From Acidimicrobiia bacterium (GTDB lineage Bacteria > Actinomycetota > Acidimicrobiia > Acidimicrobiales > JANYDT01): 64,000 nt of DNA. Position 1 is the first letter of the stretch, and every line of letters begins with the position of its first letter. Below, piece by piece: positions 44,316 through 64,000 of this stretch. The notes under the pieces are model-generated. The model was not told the origin of the DNA, did no database searches, and was given only the letters and a program-made list of their open reading frames with translations. The stretch lies in contig JANOYY010000013.1 in the NCBI GenBank assembly GCA_031429095.1, forward strand, positions 13,719 to 77,718, given 5' to 3'. The position numbers were made by a program, and so were the translations under genes.

Positions 44316-45173
44316 TTAGCAGGACCGAGGCAGCAGGTTCAGAGCCTCCTCGACGCCGGGCTGCCAAGCCTTGGCGAACAACTCTCCGCCATTCAATGAG
44401 AAGTGGACCCCGTCGACGGTGTCCTTCGCCGCGTTGAATCCGGCCGCCAACAGTCGTTTTGCCGTGTCGCCGTAAACAACTCGATCGTGCGGATCAGCGT
44501 TCCCGGCTGCACTTGCTGCTGCGTTCACACCTTTGTTCACGTTGGTCGAGGTTGGATCGTAGATCGACGGTGGAATATCGCCGACCACGAGGACTGCATT
44601 GGGCGCGAGTCCGCGAATCTTCTTTATGAGAGCAGTCAACTTACGTGGCGCTTCCGTTATCCAGGTTCCGCCACCGGCAATATCGTTCGTTCCGATGGTC
44701 AAGAGAATGATTTGTGGCTTCGCCGCCGGAATCCACCTGTCAAGATTTTCGAACAGGTTGGACTTCTCGCCCCGGTCGTCTAGGCGGGCATCGGGGCCAA
44801 TTGTGAAACCTCCGTGACCCTCCCCATCGGCATCTCCGCCGATGGTCGGCGCCCAACTCGCCGATCCCACGAAATCGACGTCGAGTCTGAGGGAAACAAG
44901 ATTTCGAAACAGCGGACCCCGGTACGAGTCTGGAAACGCCGTAAGAGAGTCGCCCAGGGGCATTATCCGAATTTTGGAACACCGACTCGATGGTCGTGTC
45001 GTCGGGGCAGGTTTCACGACCGCAGCGAGTTTGCGTCGCGCCGGGCGCGTTGACTTGGTAGTCGCTTGTGTCAGCGGGGTGGTTGACACCGTAAGAACCC
45101 CGATCACGAGAATCACTTTGGCGACGATCGCCCGCTTCGGGCACCACGACAGAGGGGCCGGGGAAGGAACCAT
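44316..45173 (-). CDS. Secreted or membrane-anchored SGNH/GDSL hydrolase
   Basis: IMPLGDSLT (block I Ser), GTNDI (block III) and DGVHFS (block V) motifs with an N-terminal hydrophobic anchor. Confidence 0.8.
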   Translation of the reverse strand: MVPSPAPLSWCPKRAIVAKVILVIGVLTVSTTPLTQATTKSTRPARRKLAAVVKPAPTTRPSSRCSKIRIMPLGDSLTAFPDSYRGPLFRNLVSLRLDVDFVGSASWAPTIGGDADGEGHGGFTIGPDARLDDRGEKSNLFENLDRWIPAAKPQIILLTIGTNDIAGGGTWITEAPRKLTALIKKIRGLAPNAVLVVGDIPPSIYDPTSTNVNKGVNAAASAAGNADPHDRVVYGDTAKRLLAAGFNAAKDTVDGVHFSLNGGELFAKAWQPGVEEALNLLPRSC

Positions 45174-45405
45174 CGTGGAAGGCTAACCCGAAGGCATCGG
45201 AACGGAAAGAGACTCGTCCTCGAAATGGCAGAACCGCCATTTCTTTTGGGCTGATTCCCACGCCGCGGCCACCCGTACGTATCGACGTGGCGCTTCTCAA
45301 GTGCCTTCGTGGCGAAGCCGAAGTAGTACGTGGAGATCCACGACAGACTGTGGTGGAGGGCCTCCCGATGCTGAGCGAATACTTGACACCCACCAGGCAG
45401 GGCTG

Positions 45406-45576
45406 ATGACCGGCAAGTTACTGTTCCTGTCATTGATGATTGCCATCATCGTGCTTCCGACGCGGCTCTCAAAAGGGGACGTCCGAAAAGGCCCGCGCCG
45501 GGTGGTCTCGCTCTATCTCTTCGCCTGTGTCGCCTACTACGCCACGCTGCGTTTCGTAATCCCCAGAGTTGCATGA
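45406..45576 (+). CDS. Possible 56-aa two-TM micro-protein, translationally coupled to the Wzy-like gene
   Basis: MTGKLLFLSLMIAIIVLP...VVSLYLFACVAYYATLRFVI. Its stop overlaps (ATGA at 45573-45576) the start of the next ORF. Confidence 0.3.
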   Translation: MTGKLLFLSLMIAIIVLPTRLSKGDVRKGPRRVVSLYLFACVAYYATLRFVIPRVA

Positions 45577-47291
45577 AAGCCCAACACGCGGGGGTGGGTG
45601 GTTCGTGGGCCCGACACGTGAGCTCGCAGACGCGGGTTCGTCGGGCGTCGGATCGCAAGCTTTTCTCCAAGTCCTCTACCCGCGTTGTCATTCCGACGCT
45701 GCTCGTGGCGACCGTTGCCGCGACAGTTCTCGGTGGACCGTCGATGATTTTGATTCCGACCCTGGCGGGGGCGCTGGGATGGGCGGCCTTTTCGTTGTCC
45801 CTCGACACGGTCCTACCGTCGATTGCCTTCCTTCTCCTCGCACTGAACAATCCTTCGGGCCAACCTGCAGAAAACAAGGTCCATTGGTTCTTGAACCCTC
45901 TCGGAACGTTTCTGTACAAAAACCTTCCCCCCAAATTCGCTTTGGCCGACGTCTTGATCGGATTGCTGGTTTTTCGCGCGGCGACGGTGCTCGTCCTTTC
46001 CGACCGCGAGGTGGGTCTCAATCGTCGACCGCCTCGGCCATTTGCGCAGGCGTGCCTGTTTGGTGTTCTGGCCATCATCGGGTTGGAATTCTGGGGAGTC
46101 TTCGTCAACGGAGGCAACTTCCAGCAGTCTCTGTGGCAACTGCGGGTGCCGCTGCTGGTTCCTGCCTTCGCCCTGGCCGTCGCAGTAGCCGCAACCGATC
46201 TCGGTATTCGTCGTCTGCGCTTTGCGCTCTTCGCTGCCGGTTTCGTCAAGGTCGCCGAAGCAATCTGGGTCACCTACGGCACCGGGTTGAAAGCGAATAC
46301 CAGCGGCGCCTACGTAACAACGCATTCCGACTCGGTGATTTGGGTGACCTGTCTGTTCATCCTCATCGCCACCTGGCTCGAAACACGCAAACGGTCCGAT
46401 TTTCGACTCATGCTCGTGGCGTCCCCGTTCTTCCTTCTCGCAATTGAGTTGAATAACCGCCGGGTGGCCTGGGTAGCGCTCCTCGCCGGAACCCTTTTTC
46501 TCCTGACCGTGGCGCATCGTCCCGTGAAGCGCCAACTCGGCCGGTACCTGTCGCTGACCTGGCCGCTCCTCGTTGTGTACATCGTTGTTGGATTCGCATC
46601 CCAGTCGGCGTCGTCGATCTTTTTGCCAATCAACAAGATCGCCAGCGTCTCGACCAAGAAGGACGTTTCGACAGACACGCGAGACATCGAGAATTTCAAC
46701 CTACTGGTCACATTGAAGGAAAAGCCCGTGCTCGGGTACGGATTCGGTCACCAGTACAACGAGTTCGTGGTTGCGTACCAGATCAAGGACGCGTTTTCGC
46801 AGTACCGGTACCTGCCCCACAACAGCTTCCTGGGCTTTTGGGCGTTCAACGGACTGATCGGCCCATCGATCTATTTCCTCCTGCCGGTCGTTTCGGTGTT
46901 CTACGCAGTGAGCACTCGGCGACGCAGCATCAATCCCCAGCACCGTGCGGCCGGCGCATGGTCGGTGTGCATCGTTATTGCCTATCTCATCCAGTCATGG
47001 GCTGATCTCGGCATGCAGGACTGGGCAGCAATGATTTGTGTCGGGATCGCCTACGGGGCTTCGGGCTCATTAGGCCGCTCCCTGATCGCCGAAGGCCGCC
47101 CCTCCCGGGTTCGCGGCCATCGCTTCGAATACGTCGACGAGGATCAGGTTCCCCCTGCGCTTCGCCAGCCCGAAGCGGCTGCCTCCGGTCGCCTGCCGAG
47201 CCCCCGTGCACGCCAATCGGTGGCCGCAGCCATCGTTCGGGAGTCGGAACCGCCCTCGGCGGGCCGCCACGTCGCATCTGCCCAGCGATAA
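45573..47291 (+). CDS. O-antigen ligase/Wzy-like polytopic membrane protein (probable EPS polymerase)
   Basis: At least 10 hydrophobic segments and a LPHNSFLGFWAFNGLIG motif typical of the Wzy_C/O-antigen ligase family. Arg/Pro-rich C-terminal tail. Confidence 0.7.
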   Translation: MKAQHAGVGGSWARHVSSQTRVRRASDRKLFSKSSTRVVIPTLLVATVAATVLGGPSMILIPTLAGALGWAAFSLSLDTVLPSIAFLLLALNNPSGQPAENKVHWFLNPLGTFLYKNLPPKFALADVLIGLLVFRAATVLVLSDREVGLNRRPPRPFAQACLFGVLAIIGLEFWGVFVNGGNFQQSLWQLRVPLLVPAFALAVAVAATDLGIRRLRFALFAAGFVKVAEAIWVTYGTGLKANTSGAYVTTHSDSVIWVTCLFILIATWLETRKRSDFRLMLVASPFFLLAIELNNRRVAWVALLAGTLFLLTVAHRPVKRQLGRYLSLTWPLLVVYIVVGFASQSASSIFLPINKIASVSTKKDVSTDTRDIENFNLLVTLKEKPVLGYGFGHQYNEFVVAYQIKDAFSQYRYLPHNSFLGFWAFNGLIGPSIYFLLPVVSVFYAVSTRRRSINPQHRAAGAWSVCIVIAYLIQSWADLGMQDWAAMICVGIAYGASGSLGRSLIAEGRPSRVRGHRFEYVDEDQVPPALRQPEAAASGRLPSPRARQSVAAAIVRESEPPSAGRHVASAQR

Positions 47292-47405
47292 GACGTCACG
47301 AGGGCGAGTAGCGCCCTGCAAAACCCCATTGCGGATGCGAGCTTGGGGCAAGCGTTGCGGCTCGGCTAAACTAGTTGCGGGCCGGGGGGCCAGGAAGCAG
47401 AGCGA

Positions 47406-48086
47406 GTGAGCCAAATGGACGTCGAAACCAAAGATTGCACGGCCCTATCGGATGCTGAACTCACCGAGATGGGGGACATTTCCGTACCGTCCTCCGCAGG
47501 ATTCGATATTGGTCTGCTCTCCAAGCAACGCGACCTCTGGGTGCTCGTCACGCAGGTACGCGAGGCCGGCAAGCTCCAAGCGTTCGGGTTCTGCAGTCTC
47601 GAGCGGATCGGTGGGACCCCATCGCTTCTGGTTGGGCTGGCATCGGTGCGTCGGGGGTCAAAACGCGATACAGCCTTGCGCGTCATGATGTTCGACCAGC
47701 TTCGTCGATCGCTGCTTGCTTTCCCCGACGAAGACGTATTGATCGGGACACGAATGATCGACCCTGCGGGTTTTGCCGCGTTCAAGGGTCTCGAAGACAT
47801 CGTTCCTCGGCCGGGACACAAACCGAGCGGTGAAGAACGAGCGTGGAGCCGTCGACTCGCCAAGCGCTTTGGCGCCGAACACCGAGTCGACGACCGAGCC
47901 TTTGTCATTCGAGGTGACGGTTCACCGGGTGGGTGCCTCGATTTCGAAGCGACAAAGCCTGATTCGATCGCTCACGACATCCGAGAGTTCTTCTCCACCC
48001 TCGACCGGCCGAACGGCGATGTTCTGGTCACCTTCGGGTGGGCGATGGCGGAGCATCTCGCCGCCCGTGTGGCCAGCGGGAAATAG
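47406..48086 (+). CDS. Hypothetical protein, possibly GNAT-fold
   Basis: 226-aa ORF with coding-like codon bias. There is only weak GNAT-like resemblance (VRRGSKRDTALRVM, RRLAKRFG). No firm motif. Confidence 0.4.
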   Translation: MSQMDVETKDCTALSDAELTEMGDISVPSSAGFDIGLLSKQRDLWVLVTQVREAGKLQAFGFCSLERIGGTPSLLVGLASVRRGSKRDTALRVMMFDQLRRSLLAFPDEDVLIGTRMIDPAGFAAFKGLEDIVPRPGHKPSGEERAWSRRLAKRFGAEHRVDDRAFVIRGDGSPGGCLDFEATKPDSIAHDIREFFSTLDRPNGDVLVTFGWAMAEHLAARVASGK

Positions 48087-48101
48087 TCGACGCTCGAACG
48101 T

Positions 48102-48761
48102 CTACGGCAAGAGCCCGGCGATAACTTTGGAGCAGTAGCCGTTGTGGGGGCGGCCGATCGCAACCACAAGGCGCGTCGGGCGAAAGCCGAGCATCTCGGC
48201 CAGCGGGAGTGCTCCGGTCTGGCGCGGCGATACCCAGTCGAGCCGTTCGAGGACTCGTAAGTCTTCGAGTGGGAGATCCTGCACGTTTGAGTTCCAGACA
48301 AATCGAGCTCGTAATCCGTGCGCCGTAAGGTTGGCCCGGACGCTTCGATCGACCTCCACGATGGCGACGGAAGGTCCGCTCGTGTCGCGATCCCACCACG
48401 GGATCGACGGCCCGTGGAAACCGAGGAGAGGCCGATGTTTGGGATGAAGGAGCGGTCGTGTCAGCCGATAGGCCCGTTTGGGTGCGATGGACCCGACTGG
48501 GATGAGAGCGCGGTCGAACGTGGCAAGTTCGGGGTGCTCCGGCCGTTCGTACTCCGGTGGAGCTGTCGTGCCACGGACCACGGTGAAAGGTTTGAGCAGC
48601 GGTCGTGACACGGATTCGACCGTTCGAATGAACGCACCGGAGTCGAGGTCGACTCCGATACAACTTCTGCGTCCGGATGCGACGACCATCAATTCAAGAA
48701 CGGAGCCAGGAGTTGTAGTCCTGCAGCGAACGAGTGTGTCCCCCATGACCCAATAATGCAT
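48102..48761 (-). CDS. Hypothetical protein
   Basis: 219-aa ORF convergent with 47406..48086. No recognisable motif. Confidence 0.4.
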   Translation of the reverse strand: MHYWVMGDTLVRCRTTTPGSVLELMVVASGRRSCIGVDLDSGAFIRTVESVSRPLLKPFTVVRGTTAPPEYERPEHPELATFDRALIPVGSIAPKRAYRLTRPLLHPKHRPLLGFHGPSIPWWDRDTSGPSVAIVEVDRSVRANLTAHGLRARFVWNSNVQDLPLEDLRVLERLDWVSPRQTGALPLAEMLGFRPTRLVVAIGRPHNGYCSKVIAGLLP

Positions 48762-48890: not shown

Positions 48891-50687
48891 CTAGCCCTTC
48901 GGCGGAGACAGAGGCCCCGGCTTGGGAGCCGCCTTGCTCGTGGCCCGCTTCCCGACCTCAATGACGGTCTGCAGCAGAATCATCACATCGAGGCGAATCG
49001 ACCAGTTCTCTACGTAGAAGAGATCACAGCGTTCGTAGTCGGCGAAGCTCGGATCGTCGCGCGACTCAACCTGCCAGAGTCCCGTGATCCCCGGTTTCAC
49101 GCGGTGGCGGGTGAGGAGACGGTCATTGAACGTTGCGACCTCCCGGGCCAACGCGGGTCGCGGGCCGACAAGACTCATTTCGCCTCGGAGAACATTCCAG
49201 AGCTGAGGAAGTTCGTTGATGCTTGCGGCGTCCATCAGCTTGCCAACCTTGGTGAACCGAGGGTCGTTCTCCATCTTGAACAGCGGACCGTTGCGCTCAT
49301 TGAGTTTCTTCAGCTCGGCGAGCCGGGCTTCGGCATCGACGACCATTGTCCGAAGCTTCAACATGGTGAAGGTCTTTCCGTCGCGACCGACACGCTGTTG
49401 ACGGAACAGGGCGGGTCCTCCGTCGTTCATCTTTACGGCGATCGCAAATGCCGCGATGATCGGTGCCGTAACCACGAGCGCACAGGATGCCAAAACGAGA
49501 TCGAGAACACGTTTTACTCGGGCCTGCCATCCGGAAAGCTGTACCTGCTCGAGGTAGAACGCAGCTTCTCGACCAATCGGGTTGGCTCGAAGCCGACTCG
49601 AGTCGACGCCGAGGAGACCACCGGAGACCTGCACGTGGATATCGGCATCGAGAAGCGAACGAACCACGTGGTTGAGCTCGCGAAACGACAGCGACGACGC
49701 CCCGATGATGACACCGCTGACGCCGTTGTCGCGGGCGATCGTCGCCGCGTCGGCGGCTGCGCCCAGGTACGGCACGCTGAAGTGATGATCGGCGACCTCG
49801 TGCGCCCGACCTACGATGCCAACGACGCGGTACCCGAGTTCGGGCTCGTCGGCGAGCATCTTGTGAAGTTCATAACCTTCGTCACCCGTTCCGACCAGAA
49901 GAACTGCTCTCGTGAACCGGCCGTCTCGTCTCGCCCGACGAAGGAGAGCGCGGTACGCCATACGTCCCACGAAAATGAAGAGAACGGAGAGCGCCTGCGC
50001 CCAAAGAACGCGGGCGAGGGACAGGTTGGTTGCTCCAAGTCGTTCGGCGATGAGCCAGCCACCAACCGCACTCATTGCGCCCGCGCGGACGATGCCTGCC
50101 GTCTCGACCGCCCGTACCGAACACATTCGAGCGCGATACAGCCGTCCGGAGACAAGCAACGCCATTGTGAGGCCGAGCATCACCGGGACAAATCCGAAGC
50201 GTTGCATCGACAGCAGTCGTCCCTCCGCGGCCGACGTCGTCGTCGAGGTGGTGATAGCCCAGGCGATCGTCACACCGAGCACGTCCCCCGCCACCAAGGC
50301 TGCGCGAAGGCGCCGGCTACCCGCCCGAGGAGCTTCGCGCGTCTCGGCAATGAGGTTGACCGGGTTCAGTCCGGAGAGCTCGTCGATCGAGTCAACCCTT
50401 TCGGTGTCGACGTGTTCATTCGCGTCGACGAATACCGGTCGGGCATCGCGAAACCGGCGGTCGACAAGGGAATCGATGTCGTCGAGTTCTTCGAGATCCT
50501 GTCGATTCACTGCACCTCCTACTCGATGCCTTTCAAAAGGGCTGACTTCGAGTTCTTGCCAAAGAGCAAAAGTTCCCGAGTCAACACGCTTGCTTGCTGC
50601 GATTTCTGACTTCGGCGCATAGGGCGCACGTCTTGAGGTCAAAACCGCTGAACCGCACAATGACCACCCGGATGCTAGTTGTTGCAC
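48891..50687 (-). CDS. Polyprenyl-phosphate hexose-1-phosphate transferase (WbaP/CpsE-type priming glycosyltransferase)
   Basis: C-terminal bacterial sugar transferase domain KRVLDLVLASCALVVTAPI...FRQQRVGRDGKTFTMLKLRTM...PLFKMENDPRFTKVG...ELPQLWNVLRGEMSLVGPRP, with upstream TM segments. The N-terminal start is uncertain. Confidence 0.9.
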   Translation of the reverse strand: MQQLASGWSLCGSAVLTSRRAPYAPKSEIAASKRVDSGTFALWQELEVSPFERHRVGGAVNRQDLEELDDIDSLVDRRFRDARPVFVDANEHVDTERVDSIDELSGLNPVNLIAETREAPRAGSRRLRAALVAGDVLGVTIAWAITTSTTTSAAEGRLLSMQRFGFVPVMLGLTMALLVSGRLYRARMCSVRAVETAGIVRAGAMSAVGGWLIAERLGATNLSLARVLWAQALSVLFIFVGRMAYRALLRRARRDGRFTRAVLLVGTGDEGYELHKMLADEPELGYRVVGIVGRAHEVADHHFSVPYLGAAADAATIARDNGVSGVIIGASSLSFRELNHVVRSLLDADIHVQVSGGLLGVDSSRLRANPIGREAAFYLEQVQLSGWQARVKRVLDLVLASCALVVTAPIIAAFAIAVKMNDGGPALFRQQRVGRDGKTFTMLKLRTMVVDAEARLAELKKLNERNGPLFKMENDPRFTKVGKLMDAASINELPQLWNVLRGEMSLVGPRPALAREVATFNDRLLTRHRVKPGITGLWQVESRDDPSFADYERCDLFYVENWSIRLDVMILLQTVIEVGKRATSKAAPKPGPLSPPKG

Positions 50688-50958: not shown

Positions 50959-51627
50959 ATGACCACATTGGGCGCCGGTCTGAAATCGGTCCACGCAAAA
51001 CTTCGCCGCGACGGTGGTCTGTCGAGATCGACCATTCGAAAGGCGAGGGACTACGCACTTGGACTCGCCAAGGCTCGGTTTTGCCTGCGCAATATTGGTG
51101 GCAGGGGTCGCGGCTGCCGCGTCAACGGACAGGTCGTGGTCCGCAACGACGGGCAGATGGAACTCGGCCGAGAGAGCGTCCTGCGTGGAATTCCGACCGC
51201 AGTCGAGTTGGCCACGGGTCCAGAAGGTTCTTTGGAGATCGGCACCGGCGCGATCATCAACAGCGGCGCAAGTATTTGCGCTTACGGTCGCATCGTGATT
51301 GGAAATCGGGTCCTCATCGGACCGCACGTCATGATCAACGACACGTCGTTCCATGACCTTTATGACCGGTCGGTTGTGCCCGAACCGTTCGACGTCGTGA
51401 TTGAGGATGACGTTTGGATTGGGGCAAAAGTCTCGATTCTTCCCGGGGTGAGAGTCGGACGTGGCGCAGTGATCTCCGCCCATGCCCTCGTCAATAGGGA
51501 TGTCGATCCCTTCACGATCGTAAGCGGTGTGCCCGCGGTGCAGATTGCAAAACTCAATCCGAAGAAGTTTGTGGTGCGAAACCCCCGAACGGGGCAGCCC
51601 GACCCCGAGTTGGGAGCAAACAGGTGA
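50959..51627 (+). CDS. Left-handed beta-helix (hexapeptide) acyl/acetyltransferase
   Basis: Hexapeptide repeats IGTGAIINSGASI, IGNRVLIGPHVMI, VWIGAKVSILPGVRVGRGAVI. Confidence 0.85.
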   Translation: MTTLGAGLKSVHAKLRRDGGLSRSTIRKARDYALGLAKARFCLRNIGGRGRGCRVNGQVVVRNDGQMELGRESVLRGIPTAVELATGPEGSLEIGTGAIINSGASICAYGRIVIGNRVLIGPHVMINDTSFHDLYDRSVVPEPFDVVIEDDVWIGAKVSILPGVRVGRGAVISAHALVNRDVDPFTIVSGVPAVQIAKLNPKKFVVRNPRTGQPDPELGANR

Positions 51628-55666: not shown

Positions 55667-56706
55667 GCCAGACACCAAGTGAGTACGGTGCTGATGGCGG
55701 CGAACTCTTCGATCTGGGTCAAGGCAAGCTGTGGCTCGGGTTCGTGCTTCGCTCGATTCGGCGTCACCTCCGCTTGTTCCTTGCGACGTTTCTGGTCTTG
55801 GCGTCGCTCGGTATTGTCCTGACGCTTTCGGGATCGAAGCAGTACTACGCGGCCTCAAAGCTCCTTGCGGCACGTCGCGATTCGACGATCGGGACGATAA
55901 CCAATCCGAATAATGGCGGCGGCGACCCAACGAACGAAACGCCCGCCCAAGCGGCGGAGCAGGTCATCAAGTCTGACGCGAGCCTTATTCGGCTGGTGGA
56001 GGACCTGAAGCTTGTCGAGCGAGCCAACGTGGGTGAACCGCCGCTCGGAAAAGTGAAACGTGGCATTTTTGAGGCGATCTTTTCCAAGCCCGACCCGGTG
56101 ACACAAGAACGTGACATGGTCGGAAAACTCCGTGTTGCGTTGTCGGTCGCGACCAGTGATCGGGAGAGCGTCAAGAAGACCGTCGATCTGAGTGTGATCT
56201 GGCAGGATCCGTTGATCGCGAAGCAGATAGTGGATGCCGCCGGTTCAAGCTTCCTCCGCGATCGTCAAGACGCCGAAATCGAATCGATAACGAAGGCCCG
56301 CGATATCGCGGCCGAACAGCTGAAAAAGGAACAGGACAAGGTTGTGACCCTGCGCGACGAACTAGGGATTCCTGAGTTCGATGAACGGCCGGTGCCCGAG
56401 TCGTCACCGTTGAAGGGAGCGCTGGCCCGCGTCGATGACTACAGCCAACGAGTCCTGGACGCAGACACGCAGCTCAAGGCTGCTGCTGCATCCTTCCCGT
56501 CACGTTTCGCGGTCACAACGCCGGCTCAGCTCCCGGTAGCCCCGCTCAACGGGGGTCTTTCATCGTTGCTCATTCCCGTTCTCGCGAGCGCGATCGTCGG
56601 AGCATTTGTGACAACGTTGGCGGATGTACTTCGAGGACGTGTTGTCGAGCCGTGGCAGGTAACCCGGAGCACGGGGCTGCCGCTTCTTTCCGATTTGAAG
56701 AACTAG
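55663..56706 (+). CDS. Wzz/PCP-family chain-length determinant protein (no kinase domain)
   Basis: N-terminal TM (LRLFLATFLVLASLGIVLTL), a long extracytoplasmic coiled-coil region and a C-terminal TM (LLIPVLASAIVGAFVTTLA). The ATG at 55663 overlaps (ATGA) the flippase stop. Confidence 0.7.
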   Translation: MSQTPSEYGADGGELFDLGQGKLWLGFVLRSIRRHLRLFLATFLVLASLGIVLTLSGSKQYYAASKLLAARRDSTIGTITNPNNGGGDPTNETPAQAAEQVIKSDASLIRLVEDLKLVERANVGEPPLGKVKRGIFEAIFSKPDPVTQERDMVGKLRVALSVATSDRESVKKTVDLSVIWQDPLIAKQIVDAAGSSFLRDRQDAEIESITKARDIAAEQLKKEQDKVVTLRDELGIPEFDERPVPESSPLKGALARVDDYSQRVLDADTQLKAAAASFPSRFAVTTPAQLPVAPLNGGLSSLLIPVLASAIVGAFVTTLADVLRGRVVEPWQVTRSTGLPLLSDLKN

Positions 56707-56727
56707 TTCACCGATGAGAGGCCCCGA

Positions 56728-57984
56728 ATGACTCGCAAGGGCTATCTCGCGCTCGACGTTCTTCTGGCGACGCTGGCCACCCCGGCGGGGCTGGCCGGGA
56801 CGTATCTCGGCGCGCTTTCATTGCTTTCTTCAGCCCCGAAGCCCCGACCCGGGAAAACGTCGATTCGTTTCGCAGTTGTCGTGCCGGCACACAACGAGGC
56901 GCTTTGCATCGCGAACACGGTACGGAGTCTGGCGGAGGTTGATTATCCGCCAGCCAACATGCGCATCGTGGTTGTGGCCGACAACTGCACCGACGAAACG
57001 GCTGAGGTCGCTCGCCTGGCCGGGGCCGAAGTAATGACCCGCAATGACGCCAGCCGACGCGGAAAGGGTTACGCCCTCCACCTGGCGTTCGAGGAGTTGT
57101 TGGATCAACGAGACGTCAAATCGGTTCAGCCGGTTGATGCGGTTGTCGTGGTCGATGCCGACACGGTCGTGTCGCCGAACATCTTGCAGGCGTTTGCTGC
57201 CGGGCTGCTCGCCGGTGAACAGGTATTGCAGGCGACTTACCGAGTCGCCAACCACGACGCTACGTGGCGAACCTCGCTGATGGCCGTGGCATTTGCCTGC
57301 ATTCATGATGTGCGATCGATCGGCCGTGAACGCCTGGGTCTGTCGACGGGTCTGCGGGGCAATGGCATGTGTTTCTCTGCGGAGGCGCTTCGCCTAGTTC
57401 CACACCGGGCGGCATCGCTTGTTGAGGACGTTGAGCACGGTCTCGACCTTGGCGAAGCCGGTATTCGAGTTGCGTTCGTGCCCGAGGCCTCGGTCCATGC
57501 CGAAATGCCTGAGCATGCTGTGGAGTCGGCGAGTCAACGAGAACGTTGGGAGTTGGGTCGGGCGAAGTTGAAACGACAGCGACTTCCTCGACTGGTTCGA
57601 CGAGCGGCGGTCGATAGGGACCCCATACTCGCTGACCTCGCCATCGACCTCGCCATTGCGCCATTGGCTCGAGTGTCGCTTGTTTTGGGAGCGGCGATGG
57701 TGGGAAGTTCGCTGTGGCGCGGACTCGTTGGCCGGTGGCCGAAAGCGATCTGGCCAACGGGAGTCGGACTCGTCGGGCTCGTCGGCCACGTTGGCGTTGG
57801 ATGGCGACAATCGGGCACCGGCATGGCCGGGTTTCGGGCCCTTCTTCATATCCCGGGATACCTCTTGTGGAAGCTCGGTCTTCGTTCCTTGCGAACCTCG
57901 GGCCTTGAAAAAGTTCTTGTGAACGCCACCGGAGATGCCGAAGAGTGGGTGCGTACAAAACGCAACTCCGAACGAAGCCAGTGA
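56728..57984 (+). CDS. Membrane-embedded processive-type GT2 synthase (PgaC/NodC/cellulose-synthase-like)
   Basis: AVVVPAHNE, VVADNCTDET, VVVDADT, LVEDVE and QRERW (57535-57549) motifs, plus N- and C-terminal TM segments. Confidence 0.8.
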   Translation: MTRKGYLALDVLLATLATPAGLAGTYLGALSLLSSAPKPRPGKTSIRFAVVVPAHNEALCIANTVRSLAEVDYPPANMRIVVVADNCTDETAEVARLAGAEVMTRNDASRRGKGYALHLAFEELLDQRDVKSVQPVDAVVVVDADTVVSPNILQAFAAGLLAGEQVLQATYRVANHDATWRTSLMAVAFACIHDVRSIGRERLGLSTGLRGNGMCFSAEALRLVPHRAASLVEDVEHGLDLGEAGIRVAFVPEASVHAEMPEHAVESASQRERWELGRAKLKRQRLPRLVRRAAVDRDPILADLAIDLAIAPLARVSLVLGAAMVGSSLWRGLVGRWPKAIWPTGVGLVGLVGHVGVGWRQSGTGMAGFRALLHIPGYLLWKLGLRSLRTSGLEKVLVNATGDAEEWVRTKRNSERSQ

Positions 57985-58034
57985 ATTACCGACCTGTGAA
58001 CGCCGAACCATCAAATCCGGAAGAAACGAAACCG

Positions 58035-58535
58035 ATGTCAGAAGCCTCGAATGAAAAGATCGCGCCCGAAGCTTCTTTCGGGCCTCGCGAATGGATCTTG
58101 CAACCGGGCCAGTTCAACCAAATGCCCGATCGGTCATATCAGCAGCTGTGGTTTGAATTGCGAACATGGTCGTGGAAATCGCTGGCCGTTGTTCCAACCA
58201 TCGCGGGCGTGAGCGAACTCGATGTTGCCGAGAAACTCGTCGTCGTCGGCGTCGCGAACACGAACCGGCGGATGTCGCTGATTTCGGCGGAGGGGGCAAC
58301 CGTGTCCGACACCGACCGGGTGATCGCAATGATCCGCGCTGCGGAAGCTCGCGGCGACCGGGTGATCGTGGGAACGGACTCGATCATCGACAATCCATCG
58401 GCGGCCCCGATTATTCGAGCGGTGAACGGCACAATTCTCAGTGTGCGTCTGGGCAGTACCGAAAAGGCCGATGTGGAGCGCAGTGTTGCTGCGATCAATC
58501 GAAATCGCGTCATCGGCCTTGTGACGCGGAGTTGA
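58035..58535 (+). CDS. BY-kinase/ParA-fold-like protein with degenerate P-loop (putative pseudo-kinase)
   Basis: By eye it aligns with CapB/CpsD-type kinase cores: KSLAVVPTIAGVSE where KS.V.TS..PGEGKS is expected, VIVGTDSIID where IIDTPP is expected, and RVIGLVTRS where GvVLN is expected. There is no Walker A Lys and no C-terminal Tyr cluster. Confidence 0.5.
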   Translation: MSEASNEKIAPEASFGPREWILQPGQFNQMPDRSYQQLWFELRTWSWKSLAVVPTIAGVSELDVAEKLVVVGVANTNRRMSLISAEGATVSDTDRVIAMIRAAEARGDRVIVGTDSIIDNPSAAPIIRAVNGTILSVRLGSTEKADVERSVAAINRNRVIGLVTRS

Positions 58536-58572
58536 TCCGCAGTTGATCCGCAGTCCGCAGGTATCGGAACCG

Positions 58573-60906
58573 ATGAGTACGCAGTCATCATTGTTTCGCC
58601 GTCTGGCCGCAATCGTCGCCGTCTCGATCGCGCTGTTGGCGGCTTGTGGGTCAGCGACGAAGGACCCGTACGCCGATTCTCTTCTCTCGACGACGCTGCC
58701 GTCGTCCACAGTGCCGGGCGCCTTGCCGGACCCGCTCGACCCCCATGAATCCGGAACTGGCGTCAAAACCCCGGGTGTCTCGGCCCCGTCAGGGGGGTCG
58801 GCCCCGTCACTCGCTGAGACGCCGAGACGAGTTGTTCAGGTCGTGTACCAAAAGGGTATGCGGAGCGGTTGGAAGGACGTGGGTTGGGACCCGACCCGCA
58901 AGACCAAGAACGGTCCGGCCCGGATTGACCTGGGCAATGGCGGCGGGTGGCTCATAGCTGGGCAACCACCCTCGAACGCGACTGGGTTGGAGTTTCGATT
59001 TCGCATGCTACGCGACCTCGGTCCGGTCATTCGCATCATCGTGGGTTCCGCAGACGCAGAGAACATTGGGCGTGAACTTCGCCTGAACAGAGTGAAAGCC
59101 GACTCCGAGGGATGGGTGAAGGTTCGCATCCCTCTTTCCCAAATGAACCCGAAGGGCGTTGCGTTTTCTCAAGTCCGATTCGCGCCGGTGCGCCGGCTGC
59201 GCTCGCCAGCCACAGTGGAGATCGACGACTTCGTGTTCACGGCGGGTGGTTCGATGACGCGATATGGCTCAAGCGCGGGTGAGCAGTCCCCAGCTCCGAC
59301 GACGGTCGCTCGTCGCGCACAAAGCGATGTCGCAGCGGTGAGCAGCTTGAAGTCAGGTCTGCGGATTCCCGAAACTCAAAACATTGCCGTCGATTGCAAG
59401 GCAGATGAAAAACCAATAAGTCAACTTATCTATGGAATCGGTTGGGTGGGCGCGGGTGATCAGCCTGAACCACCGTGGGATTTGTACGCTGGGGCGAATC
59501 GCTGGGGCGGAAATCCGACGAGCCGATTCAACTGGAAACACGGAAACGCCTGGAACACGGCCAATGACTATTTCTTTCGCAACGTGCGCGTAGCCGACGC
59601 GGGCGAGAACGCCATGGACGTATTCCTCCAGTCCAATGAGGAGCACTCCGTGCCCAGCGCAGTAAGTGTTCCGACCCTCGGATGGGTCGCTAAGGACGTC
59701 GAGTCCTACTCGTTCCCGACATCGGAGTTTGGGCCACAGGCCCGGACCGATCCGGATATCGCTGACGCCGGAAATGGTGTTGGGAAAAAAAACTCGAAAC
59801 CGATTTTTCCCGGCAATCCACAACGCACGAGCGTTGCCTCATCCCCGGCGTCTATCACCAGTTGGGTCCAGTCGCAGCTGAGGGGTCGTGTCACGATGTA
59901 CTTTCTGGACAACGAACCCGATCTCTGGAATTCGACTCATCGCGATGTACGTCCGCAACCCCTCGGTTACGACGAACTGCTTCAGAACACAATCGATTAC
60001 GCGACGGCGATTCGAAAGGCAGACCCCGATGCCATTATCGCCGGGCCGTCCTCGTGGGGCTGGCCGGGCTACTTCTATTCGGCGGCGGACGCGGCTGCCG
60101 GCTTCAACAAGGCGCCCGACCGGAACGCGCATGGCGGTATGGCCCTGCTCCCCTGGTATCTGAAGGCTATGCGTACATATGAAATAAGGAACGACGTGAG
60201 GTTGCTCAATGTTCTCGACGTTCATTTTTATCCGGCGGCTACAGGCCTCTATACGCCGGGTGCGGAGAACGACGATCCAGCAATTGCTGCGAAGCGGCTT
60301 CGCTCAACGCACGGTCTTTGGGATCCGTCGTATGTTGATGAGTCATGGGTGGGCGAGGCCATCTACTTGATCCCACGCTTACGTCAGTGGATTGATCAAT
60401 ACGCCCCCGGGATCGGGATCTCGATCGGAGAGTGGAATTTTGGTGGCGAAACTCACATGAGCGGTGGACTCGCGGTTGCTGAAGCGCTCGGACGCTTCGG
60501 AGGCGAAGGGGTGACTTCGGCCTTCTATTGGACCGCTCCGCCCAAGGGTTCTCCTGCGTTCTGGGGGTTTCGAGCTTTTCGCAACTACGACGGCAAGGGT
60601 GCAAACTTCAATCGCTTGAGTATTCGAGCGCAGGGACGTTCGGGGTCGACAATCTCCTCGTTTGCATCACGAGATGACAGCGGTCACGAAGTCACCATGG
60701 TCCTCTTGAACAACTCGCCTTCGAACCCGGAGGTGGCGAAGGCGACCTTCTTGAACTGTCTCCGGCTCGAGTCGTACAAGACGTACACCTACACGGGCGA
60801 CGCGAATGGGTTTCGAGCCGACGACGAGTTGGGAGCCGTCAATGATTCGGTAACGCTCCGTTTGCCCCCGTATTCGATTACCGTGCTTCGAACCAGACTT
60901 CGATGA
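58573..60906 (+). CDS. Lipoprotein with a beta-sandwich (CBM-like) domain and a GH44-like clan-A glycoside hydrolase domain
   Basis: Lipobox LLAAC. NRWGGNPTSRFNW, YFLDNEPDLW and IGEWNFGG resemble GH44 signature and catalytic Glu motifs as I recall them. Start at the ATG at 58573. Confidence 0.6.
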   Translation: MSTQSSLFRRLAAIVAVSIALLAACGSATKDPYADSLLSTTLPSSTVPGALPDPLDPHESGTGVKTPGVSAPSGGSAPSLAETPRRVVQVVYQKGMRSGWKDVGWDPTRKTKNGPARIDLGNGGGWLIAGQPPSNATGLEFRFRMLRDLGPVIRIIVGSADAENIGRELRLNRVKADSEGWVKVRIPLSQMNPKGVAFSQVRFAPVRRLRSPATVEIDDFVFTAGGSMTRYGSSAGEQSPAPTTVARRAQSDVAAVSSLKSGLRIPETQNIAVDCKADEKPISQLIYGIGWVGAGDQPEPPWDLYAGANRWGGNPTSRFNWKHGNAWNTANDYFFRNVRVADAGENAMDVFLQSNEEHSVPSAVSVPTLGWVAKDVESYSFPTSEFGPQARTDPDIADAGNGVGKKNSKPIFPGNPQRTSVASSPASITSWVQSQLRGRVTMYFLDNEPDLWNSTHRDVRPQPLGYDELLQNTIDYATAIRKADPDAIIAGPSSWGWPGYFYSAADAAAGFNKAPDRNAHGGMALLPWYLKAMRTYEIRNDVRLLNVLDVHFYPAATGLYTPGAENDDPAIAAKRLRSTHGLWDPSYVDESWVGEAIYLIPRLRQWIDQYAPGIGISIGEWNFGGETHMSGGLAVAEALGRFGGEGVTSAFYWTAPPKGSPAFWGFRAFRNYDGKGANFNRLSIRAQGRSGSTISSFASRDDSGHEVTMVLLNNSPSNPEVAKATFLNCLRLESYKTYTYTGDANGFRADDELGAVNDSVTLRLPPYSITVLRTRLR

Positions 60907-60944
60907 GTCTTTGATTGAAAACCTTCGACCTGGAAAGGGTTCGT

Positions 60945-61172
60945 ATGTCCTTGGAATCGCTAATCGCTGCCGTCCTTGGCGTTGATGAGGCCAGCTTGAC
61001 CGACGAATCGGGGCGCGCAACTGTTACAGAGTGGGACAGCGTCGCTCAACTCAATGTGCTGTCGGCGATCGAAGAAACCTACGAGGTGATGTTCTCTTCG
61101 GTTGAAATGCGTGAGCTGAACACGATCAGGACAATTCGCGCGGCGTTGAAAGCGCAGGAGATCGACGGGTGA
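60945..61172 (+). CDS. Acyl carrier protein
   Basis: About 75 aa with TEWDSVAQLNVLSAIEETYEV, the phosphopantetheine Ser in a DS-hydrophobic context. An alternative TTG start lies at 60915. Confidence 0.7.
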   Translation: MSLESLIAAVLGVDEASLTDESGRATVTEWDSVAQLNVLSAIEETYEVMFSSVEMRELNTIRTIRAALKAQEIDG

Positions 61173-62866
61173 GCCTTCTCGCCCGGCGGTTGGCGTGGCA
61201 GAAGATCGAGCGGACCGACCGGGCGATAAATATGCGCGCATATCTTTTGGCCACCTTCACGGCGAATCCGCTAATTCCGTATCTTGGTTCGGCGCTTGTA
61301 GCCGGCGGTTTCGAGCCGTCGGTTGATGTTGGACCGTTCGACCAGATCCAGCAGACGCTGTTATTCGGATCCGTGCACAACGAAGCAGATGTAGTGGTCG
61401 TCTGGGCCCGTCTGGAGGAGCTGTGGGGGGGTGGGGCGTGGCCGTTGGTCGACGGCGATGCGGCGGCGGGCATTAGCGCACTCGTGGACGTCGGGGAGTT
61501 GTGCAGCCGGACGGCAGCGGAGCGCGGCGTCACGGTGGTGGTTGTTCTGCCAGGCGTTCCTGACTATGTGCCACTCGGGGTGGGAGATGCCGGCAACGAG
61601 TTTGGCGTGAGCGCGATGGCCGCTGAAGGTCGTGAGAGACTTCGTGCAACGTTGACGAATCGGCCTGGAGTGCTGGTATTCGATGCGGAAGCAGTGATCC
61701 GGGAGGTCGGAAGCGCAAACGTGCTCGACCATCGTCGGATGGCGGCAGCCACGATTCCCTACACCGAAGATCTGTTTGCGCGAGTCGCCGATGGGATCGC
61801 TCGCGTCCTCATGCTCGATCGCAAAGGAGCCAAGAAGGTTGCGGTCGTGGATGCGGACAACACGCTCTGGGGAGGCGTCGTAGGGGAGGACGGCGGAGCG
61901 GGGGTTGATTTAGCCGAGCAGGGACCCGGGATGTCGTACCGAGCCTTCCAGCGTTACTTGCTCGACCTCCGACGAGCGGGCACGATTCTGGCCGTTGCCA
62001 GTAAGAACAACGAGCCAGATGCCCTCGAAGTGTTCCAACGTCGAGAGATGCTGCTCGCCGTGGATGACCTTGCTGCCTGGCGGATCAACTGGGAACCGAA
62101 ATCGTCCAACATCGCGGACATGGCCGATGAACTCAATTTGGGAACGTCTTCGATGGTCTTTATCGACGACTCGGCCATGGAGCGTGCCGAGGTCCTCGCC
62201 AACCTCGCCGGAATCGTGACCCTTGAAATGCCGGAGGATCCTGCGGGTTGGTTCGATGCCATCGCTCGCTCGGGTGTTCTGGATCGGCTGCCGCCAACGA
62301 ACTCGGACCTTTCGCGTGCGCAATCGTACGCGCAGGAAACCCAGCGGGTACAGGCCCGCCAGGTCACTGATCTCGGTGCGTTCCTCGAGTCGCTGCAGTT
62401 GCGAGTCGGCTTGATCGAACCGAGTGCGAAGGATCTTGCTCGTTTGGCGCAGTTGGTTGCGAAAACAAATCAGTTCACCTTGGGCGGGTACCGGCACACG
62501 GAAGCCGAGATCGTTGCGATGGCGAACCTTGACGATGTGGTGCTTCGTCTCGTGCATGCGAAAGATAACTTCGGCGATTACGGTATTGTAGGTGCACTTA
62601 TAGTGTGTGGCAGCAATTCGCCCCAGCCCTCGCTGGACACGTTTGTTCTTTCCTGCCGGGCCATGGGGCGAGGAGTCGAAGACGCAATGCTTTCGGCAGC
62701 GCAACGGCTGGTCAACTTTGCGTTGTGTGTGCGACTCGTCGAAACTGAGAAGAATCGACCGATGCGGCAGTGGATCAGCCGTTATGGCGTGGACCCAGGG
62801 GAGCACGGGCAGATACAGCCATGTCCATGGCCGCTGCATGTCGCCAACGTTGATGCCATCGATTAG
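61169..62866 (+). CDS. FkbH-like HAD-IIIC phosphatase/acyl-loading protein
   Basis: VAVVDADNTLWGGVVGEDG (DxDxT), AVASKNNE and VFIDDS HAD motifs, with a C-terminal SCRAMGRGVE GNAT-like region. The GTG overlaps (GTGA) the ACP stop. Confidence 0.8.
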   Translation: MSLLARRLAWQKIERTDRAINMRAYLLATFTANPLIPYLGSALVAGGFEPSVDVGPFDQIQQTLLFGSVHNEADVVVVWARLEELWGGGAWPLVDGDAAAGISALVDVGELCSRTAAERGVTVVVVLPGVPDYVPLGVGDAGNEFGVSAMAAEGRERLRATLTNRPGVLVFDAEAVIREVGSANVLDHRRMAAATIPYTEDLFARVADGIARVLMLDRKGAKKVAVVDADNTLWGGVVGEDGGAGVDLAEQGPGMSYRAFQRYLLDLRRAGTILAVASKNNEPDALEVFQRREMLLAVDDLAAWRINWEPKSSNIADMADELNLGTSSMVFIDDSAMERAEVLANLAGIVTLEMPEDPAGWFDAIARSGVLDRLPPTNSDLSRAQSYAQETQRVQARQVTDLGAFLESLQLRVGLIEPSAKDLARLAQLVAKTNQFTLGGYRHTEAEIVAMANLDDVVLRLVHAKDNFGDYGIVGALIVCGSNSPQPSLDTFVLSCRAMGRGVEDAMLSAAQRLVNFALCVRLVETEKNRPMRQWISRYGVDPGEHGQIQPCPWPLHVANVDAID

Positions 62867-63034
62867 TCGTTGCGCGACACCCGACGAGGCGTTTGTGGGC
62901 GTGCATAGTCTTTTACGCGTTCGTCGTGTGATCACGCTTGCCCGGCACCCCTGTGGTTCGTGAACGGCGAACGTCGCCGGCGTCGTTCGGCTTTATGATT
63001 CTCATAGTGCTCGCTATCGGATCGTGCCGGAACA

Positions 63035-64000
63035 ATGTCGATTTTCTTTAAGAAGACTCGTCAACAGGTCGATGGCTCACCCATGACCTCGTCCCTACTC
63101 GTTGACGACCCTGAGGGGCAGTCACCTGAGATCCTGAGCCGGACCGATTCGGTCGGTGAGCTTTTCGAGGAAGCCGAAGCGGCGCGTTCGCCCGAGTACA
63201 GTGGCCAAGAACCACTTTCGTCGACCTCGATTCCCCATTTCGGAACGCTTCATTTCGACGAGTCCGTAGCGGGCCTTTCATTTGCCGATGTCTCGGTGGT
63301 CCTCGTTGGCGATTTTCCTGTAGCGGTCCCGATCCCCCGATCTCTCGCCGAAACCTGCGGGTTCGTGGTCCTTGATGTCGAAGACGATGTGTTGCGCTCG
63401 ATCGGCGTTGTCGAGGTGATCGCCCAGCCGGAACCAGCCCCCTCGCGGGCCGTGCTGCCGACACACGAGCGAGCTCGCCTTTCCTCATCAGCTGGCGCGT
63501 TCCCCGCCGGCGACGCGTCGATTCCACCCCGCACTGCGTCCGAGGTCAGCGAAGAAATTGGTTCGGCCACCCTCGCTCCACTCGCACAACGGCCCATCGA
63601 CCTCGCCCCTGCCCCGCTAGCACTTCTTCGCGGTCTCGAAGCCGACGGCGATCAGCCAATTCACGCCGCCGAACCCATATGGGACAAGCTTGCTCGACGG
63701 AGCCCTGACCTTGCAGTGCCGTCGACGCCGTTTTCTGTGGAGCCTGATTTCGTCGCTGTTGATACTGATACGGCGTTGCCCGATGACGTCGAGGGATTGC
63801 AGTGCGTGGACGACATTGTCGACGTGGCGAGACCGTTCGCCACAAACATGGCCAAACGGGTCGACGTAGGTTTCGTCGACGCCCAGAGTTGGCCTGAAGT
63901 AGAGCGCCGACTGAGTGAGCGCAGTGAAACCTCGGCCGACAGTGGCGATTTCGACTGTCCAGGGGCTGGTGCCGTTGCATCGTCTGGCGTAGAGCAGGAT
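63035..64000 (+). CDS. Hypothetical acidic protein, 3' end runs off the window
   Basis: Not in the ORF track. My translation from the ATG at 63035 is open for all 322 codons to the window end (MSIFFKKTRQQVDGSPMTSSLLVDDPEGQ...). GC-rich third positions. No motif recognised. Confidence 0.45.
   Translation, partial: MSIFFKKTRQQVDGSPMTSSLLVDDPEGQSPEILSRTDSVGELFEEAEAARSPEYSGQEPLSSTSIPHFGTLHFDESVAGLSFADVSVVLVGDFPVAVPIPRSLAETCGFVVLDVEDDVLRSIGVVEVIAQPEPAPSRAVLPTHERARLSSSAGAFPAGDASIPPRTASEVSEEIGSATLAPLAQRPIDLAPAPLALLRGLEADGDQPIHAAEPIWDKLARRSPDLAVPSTPFSVEPDFVAVDTDTALPDDVEGLQCVDDIVDVARPFATNMAKRVDVGFVDAQSWPEVERRLSERSETSADSGDFDCPGAGAVASSGVEQD

Follow-up and report, generated by a model that had tools for sequence, protein, structure and literature searches.

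The exopolysaccharide (EPS) of Myxococcus xanthus is made by a Wzx/Wzy-dependent pathway that comprises the polyisoprenyl-phosphate hexose-1-phosphate transferase (PHPT) EpsZ, the flippase Wzx, the polymerase Wzy, the polysaccharide copolymerase (PCP) EpsV, the outer membrane polysaccharide export (OPX) protein EpsY, the glycosyltransferases (GTs) EpsU, EpsH, EpsE, EpsD and EpsA, the acetyltransferase EpsC and the glycosyl hydrolase EpsB (Perez-Burgos et al., 2020, PMC7484181). Formation of the product requires EpsZ, Wzx and Wzy, and no synthase-dependent machinery was found by these authors (PMC7484181). The proteins EcpK, EpsD, EpsC, EpsB and EpsA are encoded by MXAN_7447, MXAN_7448, MXAN_7449, MXAN_7450 and MXAN_7451, respectively (PMC7484181, PMC12004946). 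Kinase-less PCPs of the PCP-2 type that are paired with a stand-alone pseudokinase were proposed to form a third subfamily of PCP-2 proteins that does not depend on phosphorylation, and such pairs have been discussed only for Gram-negative bacteria (Blocher et al., 2025, PMC12004946). We analysed a stretch of 64,000 nucleotides (the window) from an Acidimicrobiia bacterium (GCA_031429095.1, contig JANOYY010000013.1, positions 13,719 to 77,718), in which a polysaccharide locus, with genes numbered g1 to g17 by position, follows dnaE (40706-44308) directly. The genes of this region probably make up a single Wzx/Wzy-dependent pathway, homologous to the Eps pathway of M. xanthus, whose product would be a heteropolysaccharide that is secreted or stays at the surface. 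A first-pass annotation, made from the sequence alone, had described it as an accessory polysaccharide locus with Wzx/Wzy parts. The profile matches bear out the polysaccharide assignment and also the gene inventory, since every gene listed was recovered at or near the place given for it and Pfam and NCBIfam agree with the family calls.

Families were assigned with Pfam and NCBIfam profile searches of the open reading frame (ORF) translations. Nine of the locus proteins match NCBIfam models (NF0418xx) that were derived from the M. xanthus EPS pathway, with E-values from 1e-27 to 2e-185. The predicted initiating enzyme g5 (48891-50687, minus strand, divergent from the main operon) is a PHPT of the WbaP/EpsZ type with matches to EpsZ (8e-68), Bac_transf (5e-63), CoA_binding_3 and TIGR03025 (366 bits, cut-off 295). 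The Wzx flippase of the MOP family, g10 (54134-55666, plus strand), matches Wzx_EPS (6e-61) and, above the cut-off, Polysacc_synt (3e-8) and has 12 hydrophobic segments; its start was taken from the gene call on an identical contig (L001). The Wzy-type repeat-unit polymerase g2 (45573-47291, plus strand) has about 10 such segments and matches Wzy_EPS (9e-74) and, also above the cut-off, Wzy_C (2e-12). The PCP g11 (55663-56706, plus strand) is a kinase-less, EpsV-like PCP-2 with two transmembrane (TM) helices that matches the EpsV model (1e-28), with the Pfam family Wzz slightly below its cut-off. With a PHPT initiator, a Wzx, a Wzy and a two-TM PCP, the generic set of a Wzx/Wzy pathway is present. 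The remaining five matches are all found on the plus strand. The GT2 g7 (51624-52676) is an EpsD homologue (EPS_EpsD 8e-80; Glycos_transf_2 7e-17), the GT26 of the WecG/TagA/CpsF type g9 (53272-54150) an EpsA homologue (EPS_EpsA 8e-62; Glyco_tran_WecG 1e-52) and the membrane GT2 g12 (56728-57984) an EpsU homologue (EpsU 1e-107; Glyco_tranf_2_3 1e-28). The left-handed beta-helix (LbH) protein g8 (52643-53275, alternative start 52673) resembles serine O-acetyltransferases and is homologous to EpsC (EPS_EpsC 1e-27; Hexapep 7e-12; CysE 6e-25), and g14 (58543-60906) is a lipoprotein of glycoside hydrolase family 44 (GH44; Glyco_hydro_44, PF12891, 1e-61) that matches EPS_EpsB over the whole model (2e-185).

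Together with the bacterial tyrosine (BY) pseudokinase discussed below, ten components of the M. xanthus pathway thus have homologues in the locus, i.e. the PHPT, Wzx, Wzy, kinase-less PCP-2, BY pseudokinase, EpsU, EpsD, EpsA, an EpsC-like protein and the GH44 protein EpsB. Synteny was studied by tblastn of the proteins encoded in the window against 80 genome loci anchored on GH44 genes (L numbers denote the loci and contigs compared). In Myxococcus and Corallococcus loci the order is [g13-like]-EpsD-EpsC-EpsB-EpsA with the g13 homologue at the EcpK position, which agrees with MXAN_7447-7451, and several Myxococcota metagenome-assembled genomes (MAGs) have a single cluster with the order Wzx...PCP-Wzy-EpsU-[g13-like]-EpsD-EpsC-EpsB-EpsA. 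The micro-syntenies EpsD-EpsC and EpsU-EcpK are common to the M. xanthus pathway and the locus. The homologies indicate that the locus shares ancestry with the M. xanthus Eps pathway, which it matches almost gene for gene, and would work in the same manner. One further locus of the Myxococcus type, EcpK-EpsD-EpsC-EpsB-EpsA, was seen in L074 (BNCN01000018.1), titled 'Comamonas sp. KCTC 72670', which has 70 % GC and about 83 % nucleotide identity to Myxococcus/Pyxidicoccus loci; this assembly is probably mislabelled or contaminated.

The locus also differs from its Myxococcus counterpart, which belongs to a Gram-negative host of a distant phylum. No OPX protein (EpsY) or beta-barrel (EpsX), i.e. 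no Poly_export-type protein, was found in the locus or among the other scanned ORFs of the window. Acidimicrobiia (Actinomycetota) are a monoderm lineage and absence of an outer membrane export step is therefore expected. The M. xanthus pathway has the regulators EpsW and Nla24, which the Acidimicrobiia locus lacks, and the PCP g11 is shorter than EpsV (347 aa versus a model of about 484 positions). Conversely, the locus has as extras the LbH protein g6, the SGNH hydrolase g1, an acyl carrier protein (ACP) with an FkbH protein, and g4, and it encloses a core gene with a GNAT fold (g3). In our view the locus represents a variant of the Eps pathway known from M. xanthus but is not identical with it, because the equivalog thresholds of the models are not reached and the outer membrane parts and two GTs are absent.

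In the pathway that we propose, the EpsZ-like g5 would transfer hexose-1-phosphate to undecaprenyl phosphate, and the GT26 g9 together with the GT2s g7 and g12 would assemble the repeat unit at the cytoplasmic face of the membrane. The LbH acyltransferases g8 and g6 may O-acylate the repeat unit or its precursors, and in this lineage the ACP and FkbH proteins (g15, g16) could supply an ACP-bound, glycolysis-derived acyl group of the glyceryl type as an added decoration. Wzx (g10) would then flip the unit and Wzy (g2) would polymerize it outside the membrane. Polymerization is predicted to be governed by g11, with g13 holding the tail of g11 as a phosphorylation-independent scaffold. Outside the cell, the GH44 lipoprotein g14 and the putative SGNH esterase g1 could process the polymer by trimming, release or de-acylation, and no outer membrane export component would be needed. 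The homologies and motifs behind this scheme are observed; the order in which the GTs act, the identity of sugars and acyl group and the GH44 protein's role are inferred.

The control of polymerization would involve g13 (57945-58535, plus strand; possible starts 57945, 57981 and 58035), which encodes a stand-alone protein of 196 aa that was not assigned to a Pfam family by profile search. An AlphaFold2 model built from an alignment of 41 sequences has a predicted local distance difference test (pLDDT) value of 84.5, and values above 90 across a core of about 150 residues. The top Foldseek match of this model is the tyrosine kinase domain of Wzc (3la6; E 6e-5, probability 1.0), followed by BceF, Etk and VpsO, and the matches to 3la6, 6z0p, 3cio and 6u1q (probability 0.9-1.0, TM-score about 0.5) indicate the P-loop fold of BY kinases. 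A similar set, Wzc, Etk, VpsO and CapAB, was reported for the fold matches of EcpK (Blocher et al., 2025, PMC12004946). BLASTP aligned g13 with the ORF that occupies the EcpK position in Myxococcus eversor (30 % identity across 138 residues, E 2e-21). A word-indexed search with g13 gave only homologues with at least 54 % identity, from metagenome clusters of the clade to which the Acidimicrobiia eps loci belong, and the link between g13 and EcpK rests on the tblastn of the loci, BLASTP and the fold search.

Multiple features of a kinase are missing: g13 and its close homologues have neither a GK[ST] Walker A motif, the P-loop position reading VPT-x-x-G-x-SELD, nor a tyrosine at the C-terminus, and g13 is also devoid of the DxD motif of Walker A'. 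A profile search for the g13 family yielded 673 cluster representatives; Walker A is present in only one of the 146 new representatives checked, and 38 of the 40 C-termini inspected have no C-terminal tyrosine. Since both Walker A and the tyrosine tail are lacking, g13 is predicted to be a pseudokinase and not a kinase. The 'degenerate kinase-like protein' of the first-pass annotation thus holds, and with its modelled Wzc-kinase fold it is a homologue of EcpK, the tyrosine pseudokinase that partners EpsV. However, EcpK has a C-terminal helix rich in Lys and Arg, whereas g13 has no such helix and stops right past the last strand.

The core of g13 is highly conserved. In the comparison with L003/L088, L005 and L009, its approximately 150 aa reach 93-94 % identity to a relative whose DnaE is 91.5 % identical and whose other Eps proteins are 64-77 % identical. 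For more distant relatives the core retains 68-80 % identity, while its neighbours fall to 40-60 %. This pattern points to an unusually strong constraint for a non-catalytic scaffold.

A candidate contact site is found in g11, which has TM helices at residues 38-56 and approximately 300-320, followed by a cytoplasmic tail of 27 aa (aa 321-347; 56623-56706). Across 12 Acidimicrobiia homologues, no other segment of the PCP is as well conserved as this tail (DVLRGRVVEPWQ..R...LPLL). Both in EpsV/EcpK and in CapA/CapB a cytoplasmic tail docks the pseudokinase or kinase (PMC12004946), and by analogy the g11 tail fits a predicted docking peptide for g13. The HfsA/HfsB pair of the Caulobacter crescentus holdfast is comparable, as it also combines a kinase-less PCP-2 with a BY pseudokinase of the stand-alone type in a Wzx/Wzy pathway, but it occurs in another phylum and a diderm host with other glycosyltransferases; the comparison is made at the level of the described components. 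The capsule systems with CapA/CapB of Staphylococcus aureus and CpsC/CpsD of Streptococcus pneumoniae resemble the locus in being monoderm, without outer membrane step, and in having a PHPT, Wzx and Wzy. CapA and CpsC are two-TM PCPs as well, with a short cytoplasmic C-terminal tail that docks a separate protein with P-loop fold, as is predicted for g11. Unlike CapB and CpsD, g13 has neither the Walker motifs A, A' and B nor a tyrosine cluster, and because of this it should not be able to act as an autokinase. In addition, profile searches detected neither a phosphotyrosine phosphatase of the CpsB/CapC type nor an LytR-CpsA-Psr (LCP; CpsA) gene in the locus, unlike in Gram-positive capsule loci.

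Genome comparison indicated that the locus is no recent addition. The GC content is flat at about 0.60 (0.59-0.61) across the window, GC at third codon positions (GC3) is 0.667 in the locus and 0.669 in housekeeping genes, and the codon usage of the two correlates at 0.96. The GC and codon usage profile that the first-pass annotation had proposed as a check thus reveals no deviation from housekeeping genes, and these values speak against a compositional island. The nearest matches of the GH44 protein in genomes are from Acidimicrobiia MAGs (77, 51 and 47 % identity), followed by Myxococcota (40-46 %). In relatives with GH44 identities of 77, 64, 51 and about 46 %, g5 to g14 occur in the same order. 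The downstream flank LysR-luciferase-nadD-rsfS is present in L003 and L005, and the upstream flank lspA-rluD-Rrf2-BPA-dnaE in L087, L088 and L090, so that gene order and the site near dnaE are the same in Acidimicrobiia relatives with proteins 45-77 % identical. Synteny in five or more relatives rules out a strain-specific locus, and with native composition and the same dnaE-proximal site in at least five relatives the label 'accessory', taken to mean strain-specific, does not hold. In the deeper relative L089, g3 follows dnaE but the 10 kb around g3 are free of eps genes; the locus is therefore variable at this site at the level of class or clade. In neighbour-joining (NJ) trees of the GH44 protein and EpsU, Acidimicrobiia form their own clades, with SJ307 (Acidimicrobiales) basal and a split as deep as that from Myxococcota. 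These trees are rough, without bootstrap or maximum likelihood analysis, and serve only to show that the clades are separate, which argues against recent transfer. The locus is native to and lineage-conserved in Acidimicrobiia.

The combination of a Wzx/Wzy pathway with g12 and g14 could be explained differently. The first-pass annotation had regarded g12 as a second, synthase-type GT2, and for this there is a basis in its motifs: g12 carries the motifs DAD (residue 143) and QRERW (residue 270), and all 41 homologues, which come from both phyla, share an unchanged QRxRW. It also has C-terminal membrane segments and weaker matches to PgaC, NodC and cellulose synthase. The adjacent lipoprotein g14, which the first-pass annotation had correctly recognized as GH44-like, has the lipobox LAAC and matches GH44 cellulases/endoglucanases and xyloglucanases in the PDB at 1e-82. 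Its catalytic glutamates E458 (NEP) and E630 (GEW), which by alignment offset we take to correspond to E186 and E359 of Clostridium thermocellum Cel44A, are invariant in 21 homologues. With both glutamates kept and a lipobox present, g14 is predicted to be an active extracytoplasmic glycanase. GH44 enzymes of known structure act as beta-1,4-glucanases or xyloglucanases, and adjacency of g12, g13 and g14 is kept in all Acidimicrobiia loci and several Myxococcota loci. The locus might thus be a hybrid in which g12 processively makes and exports a homopolymer or block of the beta-glucan type, with g14 as its glucanase, as BcsZ is for cellulose synthase. What the locus has in common with BcsA/BcsZ (cellulose) and PgaC/PgaB (poly-N-acetylglucosamine) is a membrane GT2 that carries the motifs D, DxD and QxxRW, and a glycoside hydrolase encoded close to it. 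However, the co-polymerase, c-di-GMP receptor or channel partner of those systems is absent; in the profile searches no locus protein had a BcsB, PgaD or PilZ-type (c-di-GMP receptor) partner domain, and g12 has few hydrophobic segments overall. Furthermore, the M. xanthus homologues act in one pathway that depends on EpsZ, Wzx and Wzy, in which EpsU has its place, and the protein encoded between g12 and g14 is the predicted partner of a PCP and hence a part of a Wzy pathway. We therefore consider a hybrid quite unlikely. Judged by their homologues, g12 and g14 are most likely regular members of the Wzx/Wzy pathway and not of a second one.

A cell wall glycopolymer locus, with a teichoic-acid-like or linkage-unit-type polymer attached to peptidoglycan, would explain the position beside the division and cell wall (dcw) genes and dnaE, which is conserved in many Acidimicrobiia, and would agree with a GT26 of the TagA/WecG family and an ABC-ATPase-like gene at the 3' end. 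It is nevertheless very improbable: the initiator is a PHPT and not a polyprenyl-phosphate N-acetylhexosamine-1-phosphate transferase of the TagO/WecA type, Wzx, Wzy and a PCP are present, an LCP ligase and a TagG/TagH-type transporter are missing (g17 is degenerate and has no adjacent permease), L089 lacks the locus at this site, and the entire gene set corresponds to a secreted-EPS pathway. That the locus is a recently acquired, strain-specific island, for instance from Myxococcota, hardly deserves credence. The closest homologues outside Acidimicrobiia are indeed from Myxococcota, and the SGNH-Wzy pair and the ACP-FkbH pair are variably present, but composition is native, position and order are maintained in relatives at 45-77 % identity, the rough NJ trees place Acidimicrobiia in deep clades of their own, and no integrase, tRNA or repeat boundary was found among the called genes. 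Some of these readings can also be joined: an Eps machine without outer membrane parts and under pseudokinase control, its pseudokinase core at least as conserved as DnaE, as the first phosphorylation-independent PCP-2/pseudokinase pair of a Gram-positive, with the invariant trio of EpsU, pseudokinase and GH44 as a sub-module for processive making and trimming of a beta-glucan, i.e. a true hybrid of repeat-unit and synthase systems that in some lineages is glyceryl-decorated via ACP/FkbH. This combination is a tentative idea and unlikely.

Several points also weigh against a single Wzx/Wzy pathway of the Eps type. All nine model scores are under the curated equivalog cut-offs (for example 618 versus 1250 for EpsB, 360 versus 700 for EpsU and 269 versus 370 for EpsD), and identity to the Myxococcus proteins is only 25-55 %. 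Sugar specificities and product may therefore differ from those of Myxococcus, and the locus proteins are homologues, not demonstrated iso-functional orthologues, of the M. xanthus Eps proteins. Two of the five Myxococcus GTs, EpsH and EpsE, have no counterpart, as the locus has only g7, g9 and g12 and no further GT was found among the scanned ORFs of the window. In one relative (L005/L007; GCA_043720395.1, JAYSSR010000057.1) the whole operon is kept except for Wzx, of which no gene lies between those for the GT26 and the PCP or elsewhere within 10 kb; this relative is also without ACP and FkbH. No acyltransferase could be attributed to the ACP and FkbH proteins, given that g6 and ACP/FkbH do not strictly co-occur among relatives. 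Finally, GT2s of the EpsU type carry the invariant QxxRW of processive synthases, and a partly processive step is conceivable.

The first-pass annotation had stressed an unusual mix of pathway types and a layout unlike a textbook EPS locus. This is correct as far as ACP and FkbH, the extra LbH protein and the SGNH hydrolase are concerned, which are outside the known set, but the rest is the Wzx/Wzy EPS gene set of M. xanthus. The gene set is thus that of a well-described locus, known from a distant phylum, and it is conserved in close relatives, which is what the first-pass annotation had named as evidence against its view. The design is for the most part a known one that now appears in a host of a new kind, and the locus does not represent a new type of system. 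Searches of the literature on Acidimicrobiia EPS loci, on GH44 in EPS loci and on FkbH in polysaccharide loci found nothing relevant, and Islam et al. (2020) make no mention of Actinobacteria. The Acidimicrobiia version of the locus appears to be undescribed.

Acidimicrobiia are abundant and mostly uncultured bacteria of freshwater, soil and biofilms. The Eps pathway and the EcpK/EpsV pair have so far been discussed only for Myxococcota and other Gram-negatives, and the locus extends their host range to monoderms. A complete and vertically maintained counterpart in Acidimicrobiia suggests that an OPX translocon is not needed for the core machine to work, and the phosphorylation-independent PCP-2 subfamily would be extended to Gram-positives. 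To our knowledge, EpsU, EpsB and EcpK remain biochemically uncharacterized. With ten homologous genes, three GTs and no outer membrane parts, the locus is a natural minimal version of the pathway that could help to assign their functions. The high conservation of the pseudokinase and the PCP tail suggests a tightly constrained interaction that is worth structural work. Moreover, several 'hypothetical proteins' gain testable assignments.

Beyond the Myxococcus set, the profile matches point to three additions: the ACP-FkbH module, the LbH protein g6 and the SGNH hydrolase g1. The ACP g15 (60915-61172, plus strand) matches PP-binding with 21.6 bits (cut-off 20.8) and has a WDS serine motif. It is translationally coupled upstream of g16 (61169-62866, plus strand), an FkbH-family phosphatase of the haloacid dehalogenase (HAD) subfamily IIIC and acyl-ACP loading enzyme with matches to TIGR01686 (246 bits, cut-off 147), TIGR01681 and PDB 3slr (BF1531; 5e-32). 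Both are above their cut-offs and overlap by 4 nt, which confirms this module as first annotated. FkbH/OzmB enzymes use 1,3-bisphosphoglycerate to charge an ACP with a glyceryl unit, giving glyceryl-S-ACP, and by analogy g16 should do the same with g15. The FkbH/OzmB enzymes of methoxymalonyl-ACP and tetronate synthesis and BF1531 of Bacteroides fragilis (PDB 3slr) share with g16 the FkbH domain, the HAD motif DxDxT (DADNT in g16) and a conserved cysteine (LSCR). In contrast to the polyketide FkbH pathways, the locus has no FkbK, FkbI, FkbG-type dehydrogenase/methyltransferase or polyketide synthase, and g16 sits in a polysaccharide operon. Among the Acidimicrobiia relatives, ACP and FkbH are present only in L003, L008 and L009, and by this distribution they would be an optional, lineage-variable decoration module. 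The WcaF/Vat-type LbH O-acyltransferase g6 (50959-51627, plus strand; Hexapep 6e-12, WcaF-family matches) is limited to the relatives that are closest, namely L003, L005 and L008. Since g6 and ACP/FkbH do not strictly co-occur, g6 as their ACP-dependent transferase was not supported. In the Myxococcota loci L052, L062 and L079, too, isolated FkbH-like (34 %) or ACP-like (30-37 %) matches lie no more than 10 kb from a GH44 gene of the EpsB type. An ACP/FkbH decoration module may recur in this locus family across phyla.

The 5' part of the locus contains genes of different standing. The secreted or membrane-anchored SGNH/GDSL hydrolase g1 (44316-45173, minus strand) matches Lipase_GDSL_2 (1e-13) and has an N-terminal hydrophobic segment and GDSL and DxxH blocks. 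Between dnaE and g3, the pair of g1 and the Wzy gene g2 was found only in the window and L088 and is absent there in L087 and L090; g1 is a candidate EPS O-acyl esterase that forms a two-gene unit with Wzy. The next gene, g3 (47406-48086, plus strand), had no Pfam, NCBIfam or PDB sequence match. Its AlphaFold2 model (pLDDT 88.7) matched the GNAT acetyltransferases NatD and RimI in Foldseek with probability 1.0, and it has more than 7000 homologues in the database. A role of g3 in EPS decoration was set aside, since it follows dnaE even in L089 and its conservation parallels that of dnaE; it is probably a core gene surrounded by the locus and not EPS-specific. It represents an unannotated, highly conserved, class-wide protein family of Acidimicrobiia. 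The 219-aa protein g4 (48102-48761, minus strand) has no assigned function, with a weak match to DuOB below the cut-off (1.4e-3) and otherwise only noise-level matches in searches of Pfam at E up to 5 and of PDB sequences. In the Acidimicrobiia eps loci g4 always adjoins the PHPT gene, with homologues there in L005, L011, L013, L015, L087, L088 and L090, whereas L089 has no homologue. Speculatively, g4 could be a PHPT-associated regulator; in M. xanthus a comparable regulatory role is held by the response regulator EpsW.

The locus extends past position 64000 by one further gene, g17 (from 63035, plus strand; 63035-64000 in the window), the full length of which (562 aa) was obtained from a near-identical metagenome contig (L002:2723-4411). 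This contig and L001 are essentially identical to the window across the aligned parts. The product of g17 is a degenerate ABC-ATPase protein with a low-complexity N-terminal half of about 330 residues and a LolD/FtsE-like domain (2e-10; ABC_tran 1.7e-4, below the cut-off), in which Walker A is changed to DSTGTAHT and the signature to MPKSEM. There is no permease gene beside it. Homologues are present at the same 3' position in L003, L005 and L008. Whether g17 belongs to the locus is uncertain, and we use it as the 3' boundary. It is followed by LysR, CAP and luciferase genes, for which no connection with polysaccharide synthesis is apparent. A terminator-like hairpin (62976-62991) after the FkbH gene and ahead of g17 was the sole useful feature of a promoter and terminator scan, in which promoter-like sites were no more frequent than in shuffled sequence.

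Genes g6 to g16 form one plus-strand operon. The first-pass annotation had described its main part as joined by 4-nt overlaps, which is only partly correct. Unambiguous 4-nt overlaps (ATGA or GTGA) join g6/g7, g8/g9 and g10/g11, and also g15/g16. For g7/g8 and g12/g13 they exist only if the alternative starts 52673 and 57981 are taken, the overlap between g9 and g10 is 17 nt long, and a gap of 21 nt lies between g11 and g12. The ACP gene g15 begins 8 nt after g14. This is a tight operon with translational coupling, which we counted in favour of a single pathway. Upstream of the locus, dnaE is preceded by a dcw/division block with genes for MraW, a penicillin-binding protein, Mur ligases, MraY, MurB, FtsZ, DivIVA, RluD and the bacterial proteasome activator, so that the position given in the first-pass annotation, directly after a dcw/dnaE block, was right.

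Two other regions of the window were noted. The AT skew of the window peaks most strongly (0.24) at an ORF of 417 aa (36757-38010) between DivIVA and lspA, which has a C-terminal C4 zinc finger of the DksA/TraR type. In a relative, the protein encoded at this place has no Pfam match. On the minus strand at 3662-8206, and unrelated to the locus, a TgpA transglutaminase-like protein (869 aa) is encoded beside a MoxR-type AAA ATPase.

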